From a candidate division WOR-3 bacterium (GTDB lineage Bacteria > Hydrothermota > Tepidihabitantia > Tepidihabitantales > CAIPLT01): a stretch of DNA of 46,637 bases. Below the pieces are notes generated by a model. It was not told the origin of the DNA. It searched no databases and saw only the letters and a list, made by a program, of their open reading frames with translations. Of this stretch, positions 22,264 to 27,525 are shown in pieces. Positions within the stretch are counted from its first letter, which is position 1, and each line of letters starts with the position of its first letter. Location of the stretch: positions 1 to 46,637 of the forward strand of contig JBDRUR010000003.1 in the NCBI GenBank assembly GCA_039801485.1. Reading direction: 5' to 3'. Position numbers and translations under genes: made by a program.

Positions 22264-25263
22264 TCAAAAGTTCTTAGTTGTTGATTTTGATAAATAATTG
22301 ATAAGGTCGTGGATGGTCCCTGGAAAAGTGACAGTTTTTTGGCTATCAACAATTGTAATTGTATTATCTTTTAAAGAAATCTTTAAAAGATTTAGTTCAA
22401 TTGCCTTTAGTCGAATTAAGGCGATTGTCAATAAATTTTCAACAACAGTTGGATATTTTCCAAAACGGTCAATTAATTCTGCTTTGATTGCGGTTAATTC
22501 TTGAAGTGATTCTAAAGAGAGCAATCGTTTATATATGGCGACGCGTTCATAAGAATTGGCAATATATTCAGAAGGAATATATGCTGGGATATTAATTACC
22601 AATGTCGGTTCGATTGGTGTTTTTTCGCCGCGGAGTTTGGCGATCGCTTGTTTTAATAAATTTTGATAGAGATTAAGACCGACCTGATTGATGTAGCCGT
22701 GTTGTTCAGTGCCTAAGATATTGCCAACACCACGTAGTTCCATATCGCGGATTGCTAATCGAAAGCCGACACCTAATTGGGAATAGGCAAGAATCGTTGA
22801 CATTCGTTTTTCAAACTTTTGTTTGTCATTTGGTTCCTTGAACTTAGTGCTGTCGGGTAAAATAAATATCGCATATGCCTGTTTGTCCGAATGACCAACG
22901 CGACCGCGCAATTGATGCAAGTCTGACAATCCGAACCAATCGGCACGATTAATAATTATCGTGTTGACATTGGGCAAATCTAATCCAGATTCAACAATTG
23001 CGGTTGAGACTAAGATGTCAAACTTTTTGGCAACAAAGTCAGCGTAAATTTGGGCCAAATATTTTTCGGGCAGTTTGCTATGGGCAACAGCAATTCGCCA
23101 ATCGGGATTTAATTGCTGAATTTTTCTGGCAATTGTTTTTATTGAATTAATACGATTGTGAATAAACAATACTTGACCACCTCTTTTCAGTTCATCAGTA
23201 ATACTTTGATAAATTGTTTCATTATCCCAATAAATGACTTTAGTAATGATATCACGACGACCGGCCGGTGGGGTGTGAATTGGCGAGATATCTGAGATCC
23301 CAACTAAAGCACGATAAAGTGTTCTAGGAATTGGCGTTGCGGTTAAAGTCAAGACATCGATACTGGCTTTTAATTTTTTTATCTTCTCTTTCTGTTTTAC
23401 ACCAAACTTGTGTTCTTCGTCAATTATTAATAGTCCTAAATTTTTAAATTCAATCTGGGAACTTAATAAAGCATGGGTGCCGATAATGATATCAATTTTA
23501 CCATTTTTAAGTTCTTTGATTATTATCGGTCTTAGTCGTTTTGGCGTGAAACGGGACAGCATCGCAATTTTTACTGGAAAATTTTCAAAGCGTTTTTGGA
23601 ATGTTTGATAATGTTGGTAACATAAAATTGTCGTTGGCACTAAGACTGCGACTTGTTTTAAATTCATCACCGTCTTGAACGCCGCCCGCAGGGCAATCTC
23701 GGTTTTGCCAAAACCGGTATCACCACAAATCAGTCGGTCCATTGGCTTTGGACTTTCTAAATCTTGTTTGACATCGGCTAAGGCTTTTAATTGGTCAGGT
23801 GTTTCTTCGTAACCAAAACTCGCCTCAAATTCTTTTTGCCACTCGGTGTCTTTGTTCAAGGGTTCTTTGCGAGCAATGCTGCGTTTGGCATATAACTCAA
23901 GCAATTCTTGGGCATAGGCTTCGGTTGCCCGAGCAACCTTTAATTTGGTCAAGAGCCAGCGATTAGTGCCAAGAGTACTTAATGACGGTGGTTGCTCATC
24001 GCTGCCAACATATCTTTCAACCAGACTTAAATTTTCCACTGGTAGGTATAACTTTTGTTCGTTGGCATATTTTATTAAAAGAAAATCCTTTTCAACATTA
24101 TCAATTTTTAGTCGAACAACATTTTCAAATTGACCGATACCGTAATCAATATGGACAACATAATCACCTTTATTTAATGCCAATAAATCGTCTAATGGTT
24201 GACCTTTGAACTTTCTTTTTGGTTGGCGCGGGAGTGGCGCACCGTAGAGTTCTCGTTCAGTGATAATACAAAAATTATCATTAGGTGCATAGATACCAGA
24301 AGAAAGATGACCAATAATAAAATTTGGTTTATTACCAAAGATATTGGTTAATCGTTGGTATTGATATTGGTGAGGAATGACAAAAAAATATTGGCTTGAT
24401 GACGATTCGATTTCTGACTTTAATAGGTCAAATCGTCCCAAATAAATTGGTGGCGCAAAGAAATTAAATTTGAATTCGGGATTATTGTCGTCAATTAAGA
24501 TTATCTTATTAAAATCATTAGTCGGCAATTCTGATAAAACTAAAGTATCTTTGGGTAGCAGTTCAATCAACGTTTTCTTTTCAGTATCTGAGCGGTTTTG
24601 AGCAATAAGTTCGACGCCAGAAATATGGCTAATTGACCGTTGGGTAATAGTATCAAACGTGCGCATTGAGACAATTTCGTTGCCATAAAATTCAATTCGA
24701 ATCGGATTTTCGTATTTTGGTGGAAAGATGTCGACGATACCGCCACGCACGGCATATTCTAACGGCTCAGTAACTAAATCGGTTCGTTCGTATTGGCTAG
24801 CATCTAACCAAACAATCAGGTCAGACATTGTTAATGGTTTACCCTTATTTAAATTTAGGTGATATTTATGCCATTCAGTGATTGTTGGTAGTTGGAGTTG
24901 AAAATCTTCAAGTTGAAGCAGAACAATGAATTTATTTGACTTGTTGGTCGTAGAAATAAAAAAACGATAAAATTCAAGTTCGGCAGAATTAATATCATTA
25001 CAGCAAATAATATTTTCTTCTGGTAAAAAAGATGATAAGTCAGCAAACAATTTTTGTTTTGTTTCGTTATCTTTTATTAGAATGATAAGATTTTCCTTAA
25101 ATACCCGGTAGAGAATAGTCGCAAGAATTGGCAAGGCGCCATTGAGTCTATTGATTGTTATTAATGGTTTTGGTGGAGTTGATAATTGTTGGCGTTTTTT
25201 GACAACTGCTAAGAATTCTTTAATTTTGGCAAGTTTAAGGAAATGATACAAAAGAGTTTCCAT
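22264..25263 (-). CDS. mfd: Transcription-repair coupling factor (compact, 999 aa)
   Basis: UvrB-homology YAVRGGIVDIF, RID GDYVVHIDYGIG, GDTGFGKT, DEEH, TATPIPRTL, TRG region and C-terminal TRCF domain. Confidence 0.96.
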   Translation of the reverse strand: METLLYHFLKLAKIKEFLAVVKKRQQLSTPPKPLITINRLNGALPILATILYRVFKENLIILIKDNETKQKLFADLSSFLPEENIICCNDINSAELEFYRFFISTTNKSNKFIVLLQLEDFQLQLPTITEWHKYHLNLNKGKPLTMSDLIVWLDASQYERTDLVTEPLEYAVRGGIVDIFPPKYENPIRIEFYGNEIVSMRTFDTITQRSISHISGVELIAQNRSDTEKKTLIELLPKDTLVLSELPTNDFNKIILIDDNNPEFKFNFFAPPIYLGRFDLLKSEIESSSSQYFFVIPHQYQYQRLTNIFGNKPNFIIGHLSSGIYAPNDNFCIITERELYGAPLPRQPKRKFKGQPLDDLLALNKGDYVVHIDYGIGQFENVVRLKIDNVEKDFLLIKYANEQKLYLPVENLSLVERYVGSDEQPPSLSTLGTNRWLLTKLKVARATEAYAQELLELYAKRSIARKEPLNKDTEWQKEFEASFGYEETPDQLKALADVKQDLESPKPMDRLICGDTGFGKTEIALRAAFKTVMNLKQVAVLVPTTILCYQHYQTFQKRFENFPVKIAMLSRFTPKRLRPIIIKELKNGKIDIIIGTHALLSSQIEFKNLGLLIIDEEHKFGVKQKEKIKKLKASIDVLTLTATPIPRTLYRALVGISDISPIHTPPAGRRDIITKVIYWDNETIYQSITDELKRGGQVLFIHNRINSIKTIARKIQQLNPDWRIAVAHSKLPEKYLAQIYADFVAKKFDILVSTAIVESGLDLPNVNTIIINRADWFGLSDLHQLRGRVGHSDKQAYAIFILPDSTKFKEPNDKQKFEKRMSTILAYSQLGVGFRLAIRDMELRGVGNILGTEQHGYINQVGLNLYQNLLKQAIAKLRGEKTPIEPTLVINIPAYIPSEYIANSYERVAIYKRLLSLESLQELTAIKAELIDRFGKYPTVVENLLTIALIRLKAIELNLLKISLKDNTITIVDSQKTVTFPGTIHDLINYLSKSTTKNF

Positions 25264-25325
25264 AAATAATATAATATTATAAACTACAAAAAATTAAAAG
25301 TCATTAGGCGTTTTAGTGTTTAGGT

Positions 25326-25353
25326 AAAAAATTGGGGGACATTTCAGTCCCCC
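25326..25353 (-). terminator. Intrinsic terminator of the 21-aa peptide gene
   Basis: GGGGGAC-TGAAAT-GTCCCCC hairpin followed by AATTTTTT, 2 nt after the tandem TAA TAA. Confidence 0.8.
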
Positions 25354-25358
25354 GGTTA

Positions 25359-25424
25359 TTACTTCTTTTTAGCCTTTTTGGCGGTCTTTTTTGCCGCTGG
25401 CTTTGCGCGTTTCATACACGGCAT
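25359..25424 (-). CDS. 21-aa Lys/Ala-rich basic peptide MPCMKRAKPAAKKTAKKAKKK (histone-H1-tail-like)
   Basis: Absent from the ORF track. AAGGAGG SD 4 nt before the ATG (same spacing as rpsO and rpmB), own promoter, double stop and terminator. Confidence 0.85.
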   Translation of the reverse strand: MPCMKRAKPAAKKTAKKAKKK

Positions 25425-25447
25425 AGCGCCTCCTTTTTTAACGATTT

Positions 25448-25475
25448 AGTTTATCGCAAAAAAGTTTTTTGTCAA
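25448..25475 (-). promoter_or_regulatory. Promoter of the 21-aa peptide gene
   Basis: TTGACA, 16 nt, TAAACT. Confidence 0.75.
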
Positions 25476-25622
25476 GCATTTATTTTAATTTAGTAAGAGC
25501 GTATGCGTCTTGCTTTAAAATATAAAATTTGGTGCCAATTAGTTTACTGCACCTTTTTATTAAAAAGCGAGTCTAAATAAACAGAGAGACATTAAGTCTT
25601 TTATGATACGGTAGAAGTCATG

Positions 25623-25830
25623 CCCCTAATGCATTCGGGGAGTCAAAGTTGGGGGTTGGTTAGATCGGTGAATTAAAAAGAAGTTTGATTTTTGAAGACA
25701 TCGATAATTTGCTCAAAGTCAAAGAGTATCAATCTTTATCAGGGTAATTGTCAAAATTAAAAGCGGAACTACACTCAGCATCGAAGTTGGAATATGGCTC
25801 AGACAGCGATTCGGCATTGAGTTATGGATT
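25623..25830. repeat. Palindrome plus 12-nt phased array element, copy 1
   Basis: CCCCTAATGCATTCGGGG (25623-25640); 12-nt units starting tcag/tcaa/gcgg/tcag/ttgg/tcag/tcgg at 25739-25822. Confidence 0.65.
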
Positions 25831-25874
25831 GGATAAAAGATAAGGACAAGGTTTTGCGTCAAAAAACAAACATC

Positions 25875-25902
25875 TTGACAATAATTAATAAAAGCTTAAA
25901 AT
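25875..25902 (+). promoter_or_regulatory. Promoter upstream of the 26014 gene
   Basis: TTGACA, 16 nt, TAAAAT. Confidence 0.75.
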
Positions 25903-26013
25903 AATTTTATCGAGGAAAATATGCTGTCAATAATTTTTACGTCATTTTTTTTATTAGCGACCGTCAATAAAAAAGTAAACCAAAATATTATGCCAAACTA
26001 AAAGGAGGGAACA

Positions 26014-27525
26014 ATGAAAAAAATAATCGTGTTATTGATAACAATATTTTTAATGGTCAATGCTCAAAGTATTGGTCGAACAATTACTGCTGGTTGGACA
26101 ACCGTTGACTGGCAATTTAGCGGTCCGGTTTACACCCGATGCCGAGTAAATTCGTTGATAAATGGTATTCATATTTGTTGGGTTGGAGATAATGGTCCAA
26201 AATATAACTATTATTCATTTCTAACAAATACATGGAATTGGCCAAATGGAATGAACCCGATTTCGGTCAATGCCAATCTCGGCGGTCTGGATTATGACCC
26301 GATTAACGGTTCTGCTGAAATTAGTCTGTTAACAGCAAGCGGACCTTGTATTGCCAAAGACCAACAGGCTGGTGCTGGTGTTTTTGAATATTGTTATGGT
26401 CCAGCTGGTTATGGTATCGGTCCGATTGGCACAACAAATAATCAGGCAATTCATATTGCAATGAATGGTTATTATAGCCGTATTCAACCTTGGTGTAATT
26501 GGATGCCACCGATTGTTATTATAACTGGCGACTACACTGGATATAATATCGCAACCTCAAAAATGTCGAATAAAGTATTGATACTATGGATTTCTCCTAC
26601 GGTTTCCGGTCAGGACCAATTGTTCTTTAGTATATCAAATGATAATGGCAACACTTGGGGCGCAGCACAATTGCCATTTCCGCCTTCGGTTTATTTGGTT
26701 CCATCTTATGCATCACTGTTTGCAATGTTTGATAATCAGGACAATTTACATATCGTCGCTTCAGTTTCTGATACAGCTTACGCAATACCTTGTGAAATCT
26801 GGCATTATTGCCCACTAAATAATCCACAATGGACTTTGGTTCATTATTATAATGCACAAACGTTAAATGCACCGGTTGGATATAATGCGGTCTTTGCAAC
26901 TCGACCATCTATTATTCAGGACCCAACAACCGGTTATTTTTATGTTGCTTGGGAACAATTTGATTCCTTGAATTATGAATCGAGTACTAATTTGGCTCGT
27001 GCTGACATATGGGTAGCTGAGTTAAGAAACAATGGACAAACCGTCTATGCCAAAAGAAAGATCACTGAGCCCAATACGACTTCTAAACGATTTCCAATTG
27101 TTGGTGGCGTTTTTGCAGATACATTAGTTGTTAATTATTTAATTGATTCTATTGCTGGATTTTCAATGTATTCACAAGGACGAATAACTAATAATCCGGT
27201 TATTTGTCATTTTGTGCCGATTCCGTTTCAGGCAGCGATTGATGAACAGAAAGATTGTGATCTAACTCAATTATTATTTGATATCGTACCCAATCCGTTT
27301 ACTTCGCAATCGATAGTTAACTTTTCAATACCAATTGCTACTGATATTTCAATTCAAATTTATGATGAGTCAGGTAGAATTATTGAGACTTTAGTTAGCG
27401 AGCATAAACAACCCGGAGTTTATTCTTATACTCTTAACTCATCATCGTTTGCTTCGGGTATCTATTTTTGTGCGCTAAAAGTAAAGGACAAGTTTATCAC
27501 TAAGAAAATTATTAAAGCCAATTAA
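26014..27525 (+). CDS. Secreted beta-rich protein with T9SS type-A/FlgD-like C-terminal sorting domain
   Basis: Sec signal MKKIIVLLITIFLMVNA; Asp-box-like SNDNGNTW; C-terminal PNPF...IYDESGR...SGIYF...KKIIK; strong SD. Confidence 0.88.
   Translation: MKKIIVLLITIFLMVNAQSIGRTITAGWTTVDWQFSGPVYTRCRVNSLINGIHICWVGDNGPKYNYYSFLTNTWNWPNGMNPISVNANLGGLDYDPINGSAEISLLTASGPCIAKDQQAGAGVFEYCYGPAGYGIGPIGTTNNQAIHIAMNGYYSRIQPWCNWMPPIVIITGDYTGYNIATSKMSNKVLILWISPTVSGQDQLFFSISNDNGNTWGAAQLPFPPSVYLVPSYASLFAMFDNQDNLHIVASVSDTAYAIPCEIWHYCPLNNPQWTLVHYYNAQTLNAPVGYNAVFATRPSIIQDPTTGYFYVAWEQFDSLNYESSTNLARADIWVAELRNNGQTVYAKRKITEPNTTSKRFPIVGGVFADTLVVNYLIDSIAGFSMYSQGRITNNPVICHFVPIPFQAAIDEQKDCDLTQLLFDIVPNPFTSQSIVNFSIPIATDISIQIYDESGRIIETLVSEHKQPGVYSYTLNSSSFASGIYFCALKVKDKFITKKIIKAN

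Follow-up and report, generated by a model that had tools for sequence, protein, structure and literature searches.

Here we describe a gene of 21 codons on the minus strand of a 46,637-nucleotide (nt) stretch of DNA from a candidate division WOR-3 bacterium (contig JBDRUR010000003.1, positions 1 to 46,637; phylum Hydrothermota, order Tepidihabitantales), hereafter called the window. The mini-gene occupies positions 25475 to 25326, directly upstream of mfd, the gene for the transcription-repair coupling factor. It has an anatomy of its own—promoter, ribosome binding site, reading frame, and hairpin—and is conserved in most genomes of its order, where it keeps its place ahead of mfd; its codons bear the mark of selection on the amino acids, and stand-alone copies occur elsewhere in the phylum. 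We infer the abundance of its product, the binding target, and an attenuation of mfd from these features, and our preferred, though tentative, reading is that the gene encodes an abundant polycationic nucleic-acid-binding micro-protein whose terminator throttles read-through into mfd.

Anatomy of the Mini-Gene

The original prediction, made from the letters of the window alone, read a complete mini-gene at this place, and its promoter, Shine-Dalgarno (SD) sequence, open reading frame (ORF), double TAA, and hairpin with T-run all lie on the minus strand where it put them. The putative promoter, which would also be the operon promoter, consists of a -35 hexamer TTGACA (25475..25470, read from the sequence and found in a consensus scan) and a -10 hexamer TAAACT (25453..25448, from the consensus scan) at a spacing of 16 nt; in the promoter scan of this region the pair shows 10 of 12 consensus matches. 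Judging from the -10 positions, the 5' untranslated region of the mini-gene would measure ~20–32 nt. An SD sequence, AAGGAGG (25435..25429, seen by reading the sequence), stands 4 nt ahead of the ATG of the mini-ORF (25424..25359, seen in the same way and present in the ORF listing), which encodes the 21 amino acids (aa) MPCMKRAKPAAKKTAKKAKKK and ends in a TAA stop (25361..25359) with a second in-frame TAA directly behind it (25358..25356).

A terminator scan places the hairpin GGGGGAC-TGAAAT-GTCCCCC at 25353..25334, with seven pairs (six of them G-C) and a 6-nt loop. The sequence behind it, AATTTTTT, runs to 25326 and consists of AA followed by TTTTTT (25331..25326), so that the gap between mini-ORF and mfd holds an intrinsic-terminator-like putative attenuator. 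The downstream cistron, mfd, lies on the same strand (25263..22264) and encodes 999 aa with DEAD, TRCF, UvrB_inter, and CarD_TRCF_RID domains. In the window genome the gap measures 95 nt and contains a weakly predicted, possible secondary promoter, ATGACT-17-TATAAT (25304..25276, minus strand), also with 10 of 12 matches.

Promoter and terminator signals alone prove nothing, because their counts are near shuffled levels: the consensus scan gave 10 promoter-like sites in the 1.5-kb region where shuffled sequences have 5.8 ± 2.9, and for terminator-like sites the figures are 2 and 1.1 ± 1.2. What makes the mini-gene more than chance is its conservation in relatives, with one copy per genome.

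Conservation and Distribution

A DNA search of 40 relatives matched eight, each with an ORF of 19–25 codons behind AGGAGG that starts M-[PA]-C and continues in a Lys-rich tail; in the alignment with these relatives TTGACAA, AGGAGG, and ATG.C.TG.ATGAA are invariant, together with the hairpin. A strict exact pattern run over 185,579 species genomes gave 13 matches—eight family members, all from metagenome-assembled genomes, and five chance matches, where ~4 had been estimated beforehand by hand from the information content of the pattern. Of the 272 genomes in the phylum of the window, pattern 1 matched 39, once each, and its reversed control matched none; pattern 2, with a looser head and Lys required at codon 9, also matched 39, with a single match for the reversed control. 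The union of both covers 55 of the 272 genomes and 48 of the 66 in the window's order. These collecting patterns required GGAG(G) and fixed some codon positions.

We refer to genomes of the phylum by G-numbers (G000 being that of the window), to loci by L-numbers, and to genera and families by g- and f-numbers. Ten of the 18 order genomes missed by both patterns were inspected upstream of mfd, and six of these carry the gene (G017, G211, G202, G038, G216, and G035). Two are cut by contig ends (G005 and G221), G223 has no mini-gene within 392 nt upstream of mfd, and G215 (L107, genus g26) keeps promoter and SD, with unrelated sequence where the ORF would be. Twelve copies were located solely through their position at mfd (six in seven and six in nine order genomes), and in all the mini-gene is seen in at least 54 of the 66 genomes of the order. 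Nothing comparable stands upstream of mfd in G133, G153, G168, and G145, which belong to other orders.

The window genome has one such gene only. In G212 (L050, genus g26) the mini-gene occurs twice, 1.2 kb apart; the first copy holds promoter, SD, and 8 codons before it diverges and the second is intact, which looks like the outcome of an insertion that doubled the start of the gene. The two disruptions in genus g26 (L050 and L107) may point to a mobile insertion at the mini-gene site.

The expression signals are conserved. All 37 order loci have TTGAC 48–76 nt (mostly ~50–60) ahead of the ATG, and 35 of the 37 a -10-like hexamer, with A second and T last, 16–17 nt further on; all 41 family loci have GGAGG or AGGAG at -14..-3, as the collecting patterns, which required GGAG(G), partly dictate. 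Promoter, SD, ORF, and hairpin are retained in loci ranging from 31% to 69% G+C. With the reading frame conserved as well, this bears out the view that the mini-gene is genuine, looks translated, and has strong expression signals. The claim that gene calling had missed it also holds, and for the whole family: 16 family peptides, some of them 30–66 aa long, were looked up in a collection of ~15 billion proteins, which has none of them although it does contain the 31-aa ribosomal protein bS22 of the same genome. The distribution confirms, at the level of genome sequence, a conserved and unannotated family that is not a chance ORF. Sequencing runs in which half or more of the stretch's sampled words occur are labelled hot-spring metagenomes (5 rows, 2 studies), and one of them may be where the window comes from. 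No RNA run was among those found to carry the stretch, two runs labelled metatranscriptomic being flagged as probably DNA.

Coding Evidence and Selection for Lysine

Among 32 distinct N-terminal segments, third codon positions take two to four bases while positions 1 and 2 are fixed. Codons 2, 3, 5, 6, and 7 all vary at the third position with the first two held, codon 6 being CGC, CGT, CGA, AAA, or AAG (Arg or Lys). Pairwise amino-acid identity averages 0.63 for the sense frame vs. 0.40 for the antisense frame; these tests of periodicity and identity are partly circular, as the collecting patterns fix some positions, but the eight loci from the DNA search and the 12 found by mfd position agree with the codon periodicity. 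In a sister strain of the window's organism (contigs of runs X5 and X8), the mini-gene has a synonymous CCA to CCT change in codon 9 and one further difference, of a single base, between SD and ATG.

Where G+C reaches 58% or more (14 loci), Lys and Arg stand at 187:17 in the peptides, as against 115:634 in the longest flanking ORFs, which are mostly Mfd. Drift in base composition would put Arg for Lys, so lysine itself or its codons must be selected; we read this as probable selection for lysine, and not just for positive charge. Codon usage within lysine is also unusual: AAA accounts for 144 of 423 Lys codons vs. 246 expected from the flanking ORFs, with AAG preferred (35 of 41 loci, the other six having been dropped because they offered under 15 reference codons; the counts include related genomes, which are not independent). 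In the window genome AAA makes up 78% of Lys codons genome-wide vs. 4 of 9 in the mini-ORF, where AAA and AAG alternate, and the longest A-run in any family ORF is at most 8. Poly(A) stretches are prone to slippage, and the preference for AAG together with short A-runs would fit slippage avoidance in a translated gene.

The Peptide Family

Family peptides are 17–66 aa long and consist of a head, M-[PA]-C-x-K-[KR], and a tail of (xxKK)n type, variable in length, made of Lys, Ala, and Thr, and carrying a charge of +8 to ~+40. The overall composition is 48% Lys, 17% Ala, 8% Thr, 4.5% Pro, 4% Val, and 4% Arg, with one acidic residue in the entire family. Tails grow through repeat expansion, for example of (TAKK)n or (PARKKKVAKKK)n. 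In the family alignment M1 and C3 are the sole invariant positions, and the head is the constrained part of the peptide, the tail being free to vary. The single Cys, which had been suggested to allow dimerization or modification, is retained in most members; it is absent from two of the three copies read in genus g21, those of G038 (L099, 54 aa) and G202 (L105, 37 aa), which start MVAKKKPAKK..., while the third (G203) starts MACMKRG. The headless variants sit at the same position upstream of mfd. A 66-aa member is found in the ESM Atlas from its fourth residue on, with a low model confidence (pLDDT 0.52), and by its length variation, its composition, and this model the tail behaves like a disordered polycation; look-alikes in the Atlas, which serve as leads only, are small Lys-rich hypothetical proteins from several phyla.

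Searches for known relatives returned little. The window peptide matched no Pfam family at E up to 10, no NCBIfam entry, and, with phmmer, no PDB sequence at E up to 10; a homologue search with a natural 45-aa member produced 5086 word candidates, of which not one reached an E of 10 or better. The original prediction had likened the peptide to the tails of histone H1: its composition agrees, whereas only a single 66-aa member reaches the Pfam family HC2 (PF07382) at all, with 13.3 bits vs. a cut-off of 40, and the other three long members do not. Within the library of papers searched, neither the peptide family nor a Lys-rich mini-ORF ahead of mfd is described. This is a new lineage-restricted micro-protein family with an H1-like composition and the size of the tiniest ribosomal proteins, and the conserved mfd operon layout around it is previously undescribed.

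One small basic protein invites direct comparison. The true bS22 of the window genome is encoded outside the window (C35:11969..12064, minus strand; L066:1470..1565) and has 31 aa starting MPCGRKRKL...; against the PDB, phmmer matches it to 8fmw_V (E 1.1e-5) and 7jil_5 (E 0.0025). It is present in 61 of the 66 order genomes, where it is 81–100% identical and 29–31 aa long, with a mean column identity of 92%. All 30 order loci fetched start MPCGRKRK and the mini-peptide starts MPCMKRAK; since none of 1047 long ORFs in G000 starts M-[PA]-C, the shared head is unlikely to be chance. Beyond it, hhalign of the family profile against the bS22 profile gives a probability of 2.2% over five aligned columns. 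The earlier statement that the peptide does not resemble bS22 is therefore right as to profile homology and wrong as to the heads, which are alike. Membership of bS22 or paralogy with it was considered and is unsupported, given the profile comparison and the separate true bS22 in the genome. The bS22 gene lies 3 nt past a 98-aa ORF that is perhaps HU-like, to judge by its C-terminal sequence, and an apparent tRNA gene, seen by eye, follows downstream. In the sources, the members of the bS22 cluster carry only the name "hypothetical protein".

Linkage to mfd and the Hairpin

The synteny upstream of mfd that had been proposed as a check is found across the order. Of 32 unique loci, 29 have mfd immediately behind the mini-gene and on its strand; of the remainder, two run into a contig end, and the last is the disrupted copy L050. 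The same holds for the 12 loci found through mfd. Across loci, the identity of Mfd to that of the window is 33–60%.

Of 37 order loci, 36 have a GC hairpin that begins 0–24 nt behind the stop codon and always has its G-rich arm on the 5' side. The core is usually GGGGGC/GCCCCC, with variants that keep the pairing (GGAGGGC/GCCCTCC, GGGGCGC/GCGCCCC, and GGGCGGAT/ATCCGCCC). In minimum-free-energy predictions for 11 transcripts the hairpin is the dominant structure in all 11, and no recurrent alternative or anti-terminator pairing appears in them. RNAalifold on a MAFFT alignment called four pairs, the stems being out of register, and per-locus stems were used instead. In family f1 the stem begins 0–7 nt past the stop and in family f2 10–24 nt past it, a distance that puts the f2 stem out of reach of a terminating ribosome.

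In six compact loci (L003, L005, L009, L042, L047, and L048) the ATG of mfd follows the stem by 5–8 nt, in or just after the T-run, and has no SD before it; the mfd start at 25263 has no recognizable SD in the window genome either. SD use in that genome is ordinary, with 129 AGGAGG-plus-start combinations, many of them ahead of long ORFs; a candidate explanation in which the mini-gene was a second rpsU-like target of bS21-less, SD-blind ribosomes of the Bacteroidia type (PMC7797042) was dropped on this ground. The compact loci have no space for an equivalent of the secondary promoter at 25304..25276, and because there is no room for any promoter, transcription of their mfd would have to start at the mini-gene promoter and pass the hairpin. 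The mini-gene thus appears, in the window's order, to be the promoter-proximal cistron of an mfd transcription unit—the original prediction of a complete mini-gene beside mfd stands as regards the gene, but not as regards a free-standing unit.

Elsewhere in the phylum the gene stands by itself. Genus g96 has peptides of 22–35 aa that start MACKKKAAPKK... behind a strong SD; all four copies fetched lie away from mfd, three of them with a convergent gene behind. A 27-aa peptide (MACKKKTKK...) is encoded in G144, a member of the same class as the window's order but of a different order; this copy stands behind TTGACA and AGGAGG, upstream of a membrane-protein gene and with no mfd within 4 kb; an ORF further downstream is presumably ClpP-like, as recognized from its sequence. 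Since these copies exist without mfd, the peptide is a product in its own right, and not only an mfd leader.

Proposed Role and Alternative Explanations

In the mechanism that we propose, a strong, presumably constitutive, consensus-like sigma-70 promoter and a strong SD would yield a short abundant mRNA and, from it, a disordered peptide in bulk. As a free polycation, the peptide would coat or condense nucleic acid non-specifically, with DNA—the nucleoid—as its most likely target, in the manner of the tails of H1, Hc2, HupB, and AlgP. The transcription unit would run on into mfd; the hairpin, whether or not a T-run follows it, would end most transcripts or, alternatively, would block ribosome loading at the SD-less mfd start. 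With a very active promoter and a hairpin as throttle, the cell would make much peptide and a small, constant trickle of Mfd. The linkage could then be a lock-in: mfd would have lost its own promoter and been inseparable from the mini-gene since, and a functional partnership would not be required.

Several points weigh against this proposal. Composition cannot separate DNA from rRNA, polyphosphate, or membrane as the target, and a non-specific polycation leaves the M-[PA]-C head, which resembles the bS22 head of the organism, without an explanation. Synteny with mfd that is this deep might reflect a specific tie in function, and not mere promoter sharing. The core sequence of the hairpin appears conserved beyond the need of a generic terminator, for which we have no explanation; in addition, L010, L018, L021, and L051 have at most two T in the 8 nt past the hairpin, and because these four loci are T-poor, the label "terminator" does not suit every locus—here the hairpin may act on translation or RNA stability, and not on termination. 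The stop codons of the 41 loci are likewise unexplained, with TAG in 29, TAA in 12, and TGA in none; in the long ORFs of G000, TAG accounts for 82 of 760 stops. In the GC-rich relatives TGA stops would be expected, yet the mini-ORF loci have none.

A bolder form of the proposal, which we regard as doubtful though worth stating, would make this the smallest free-standing nucleoid protein known: a ~20-residue bacterial "protamine" or linker-histone-tail peptide, made in bulk, selected for lysine up to 69% G+C, and forming one unit with Mfd. If so, one promoter would set both the coating of the chromosome and the removal of stalled RNA polymerase (RNAP). In a bolder variant still, the M-P-C head common with bS22 would be a docking or modification site, and one family would serve ribosome and nucleoid.

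That the peptide is instead a lineage-specific tiny ribosomal or rRNA-binding protein (compare bS22, bTHX, bL37, and eL41), possibly from a bS22 duplicate that kept its head, seems to us unlikely. The shared head, with its absence from the starts of long ORFs, speaks for such an origin, and a strong promoter and SD are what an abundant protein would be expected to have; two reports (PMC7797042, PMC10618245) provide precedent in unannotated ribosomal proteins of 24–33 aa found only by cryo-electron microscopy. However, the profile comparison with bS22 and the empty PDB search argue otherwise, and a protein seated in a fixed rRNA pocket would hardly range from 17 to 66 aa with a tail that grows by repeats. 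The Lys/Ala/Thr-rich composition, with almost no Arg, His, or aromatics, is also unlike bS22, and two genus-g21 genomes do without the MxC head. Less probable again is a dedicated partner of Mfd or RNAP, a small basic cofactor co-expressed with Mfd, its tail on DNA and its MxC head on Mfd or RNAP. Deep gene linkage often marks proteins that work together, and here the operon persists although the identity of Mfd falls to 33%. There is a precedent in Streptomyces DdbA, in which an H1-like domain is joined to a DksA-like RNAP-modulating domain (PMC3643593). This idea meets three difficulties: g96 and G144 have the gene without mfd linkage, peptide and Mfd should, by their expression signals, be made in amounts far from 1:1, and the loss of the mfd promoter would lock the linkage without any functional tie.

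We also hold it improbable that the mini-ORF is a cis-acting leader for mfd, in which translation of the Lys-rich ORF sets read-through of the terminator, after the manner of ribosome-dependent attenuation or of a coupling sensor, and the peptide has no role. A short ORF and terminator hairpin directly upstream of mfd throughout the order are what a leader would look like; in family f1 a terminating ribosome would overlap the stem, the mfd of compact loci has neither SD nor promoter of its own, and selection for Lys codons, and not for Lys residues, would equally explain the bias of Lys over Arg. But the g96 copies have no downstream gene to regulate (three of the four being followed by a convergent gene) and G144 has a different one, the f2 stem lies beyond the terminating ribosome, and the folded transcripts show no recurrent anti-terminator pairing. 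Moreover, Lys codons have no logical tie to mfd, and the head is conserved as amino acids, which an attenuator leader does not need. Finally, it is scarcely credible that there is no gene on the minus strand, the mini-ORF being chance in an A/G-rich spacer or the real product coming from the antisense strand, where the ORF listing has a Phe/Leu-rich ORF of 53 aa (25332..25493, plus strand). This frame is open, and relatives have similar antisense ORFs; openness is automatic, however, because the reverse complements of AAR, GCN, and ACN hold no stop. Promoter, SD, ATG, stop, and hairpin with T-run are all on the minus strand and conserved, antisense identity falls below that of the sense frame, and the compact loci would need an antisense promoter inside mfd. 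As for chance, there is one copy per genome, against zero or one control match in 272 genomes.

We thus return to the polycationic micro-protein as the preferred reading, with several consequences. That a conserved, probably abundant protein of ~20 residues is missing from a collection of ~15 billion predicted proteins means that standard gene calling can miss whole families, even with members of 30–66 aa, and the signal of selection for lysine over charge could guide searches for other polycationic micro-proteins. The layout of promoter, mini-ORF, hairpin, and mfd would mean that Mfd in this order is supplied through read-through from a strong promoter that belongs to another gene. If the peptide does coat DNA, it would offer a minimal model of H1- or protamine-like compaction in bacteria, and would bear on nucleic-acid protection in the hot-spring habitats indicated by the metagenome labels.

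Surroundings of the Mini-Gene

The upstream neighbor of the mini-gene is a divergent gene with a sorting tail of the type IX secretion system. In the sister strain, 63 other letters replace 352 bases of the window at 25495..25848; the replacement begins ~20 nt upstream of the -35 hexamer of the mini-gene, which is kept. We found no direct repeats in 25450..26050 (seed 9, minimum length 12). The original prediction had called this region a phased array and raised, as speculation, a link with the mini-gene; from the comparison of strains it appears dispensable and variable, and such a link is without support. An Rfam scan of the window at gathering score returned a tRNA as its sole match, and a scan of 25200..26050 gave nothing beyond a chance-level match (E 0.41). 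Outside the window, on contig C1 of the same genome near position 53370 (plus strand), a 49-aa ORF (MCCDICPFYDECQELDKLDENCCSECPDYSDCQ...) that is rich in Cys and acidic residues sits behind a strong SD (CTAAGGAGGAGATAATG).

Comparison with Known Systems

The closest likeness in composition is to H1-type tails of bacterial nucleoid proteins, such as those of chlamydial Hc1/Hc2, Pseudomonas AlgP, and mycobacterial HupB and HBHA. The mini-peptide resembles these in having ~48% Lys with Ala, Thr, and Pro, almost no acidic residues, xxKK repeats that vary in number among close relatives, and predicted disorder; of the features that characterize HC2 it has Lys/Ala repeats of variable number and lacks a score at the Pfam gathering level. 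Unlike H1-type proteins, it is 3–10 times smaller, has no folded domain, and carries an M-[PA]-C head of its own. To judge by these comparisons it would be H1-tail-like in composition only. In addition, the polyanion that is bound need not be DNA, since AlgP is reported to sit at polyphosphate granules (PMC9239181).

With bS22 (AURKAIP1/COX24 family, PF08213), a component of the 30S subunit between h44 and h45, the mini-peptide has in common that it is tiny, extremely basic, and often unannotated, and that its head follows the pattern M-P-C-x-[KR]-[KR]-x-K of the organism's own bS22. In contrast to bS22, it is rich in Lys, Ala, and Thr instead of Arg, Lys, and His, has no detectable homology to it beyond five residues, and varies in length where bS22 is near-invariant (~28–33 aa).

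The trpL, hisL, and pyrL leaders share with the mini-gene the order of a short ORF rich in one codon family, a terminator, and a structural gene, and short ORF and terminator are indeed present in the window's order. An anti-terminator was not found in the folded transcripts, nor does the codon bias match a pathway, the Lys codons being unrelated to mfd; stand-alone copies and a conserved head further set the mini-gene apart from these leaders.

In layout, the nearest parallel is the rpsU-dnaG-rpoD operon of E. coli, in which the gene for a small, abundant basic protein comes first, followed by an internal terminator and then the gene for a low-abundance nucleic-acid enzyme with poor translation signals. 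There are differences—the first gene there encodes bS21, the downstream gene here is mfd, and read-through here is our inference. By analogy, the order found here, with a promoter-proximal basic mini-gene, a hairpin, and then a poorly initiated mfd, may nevertheless work in a comparable way.

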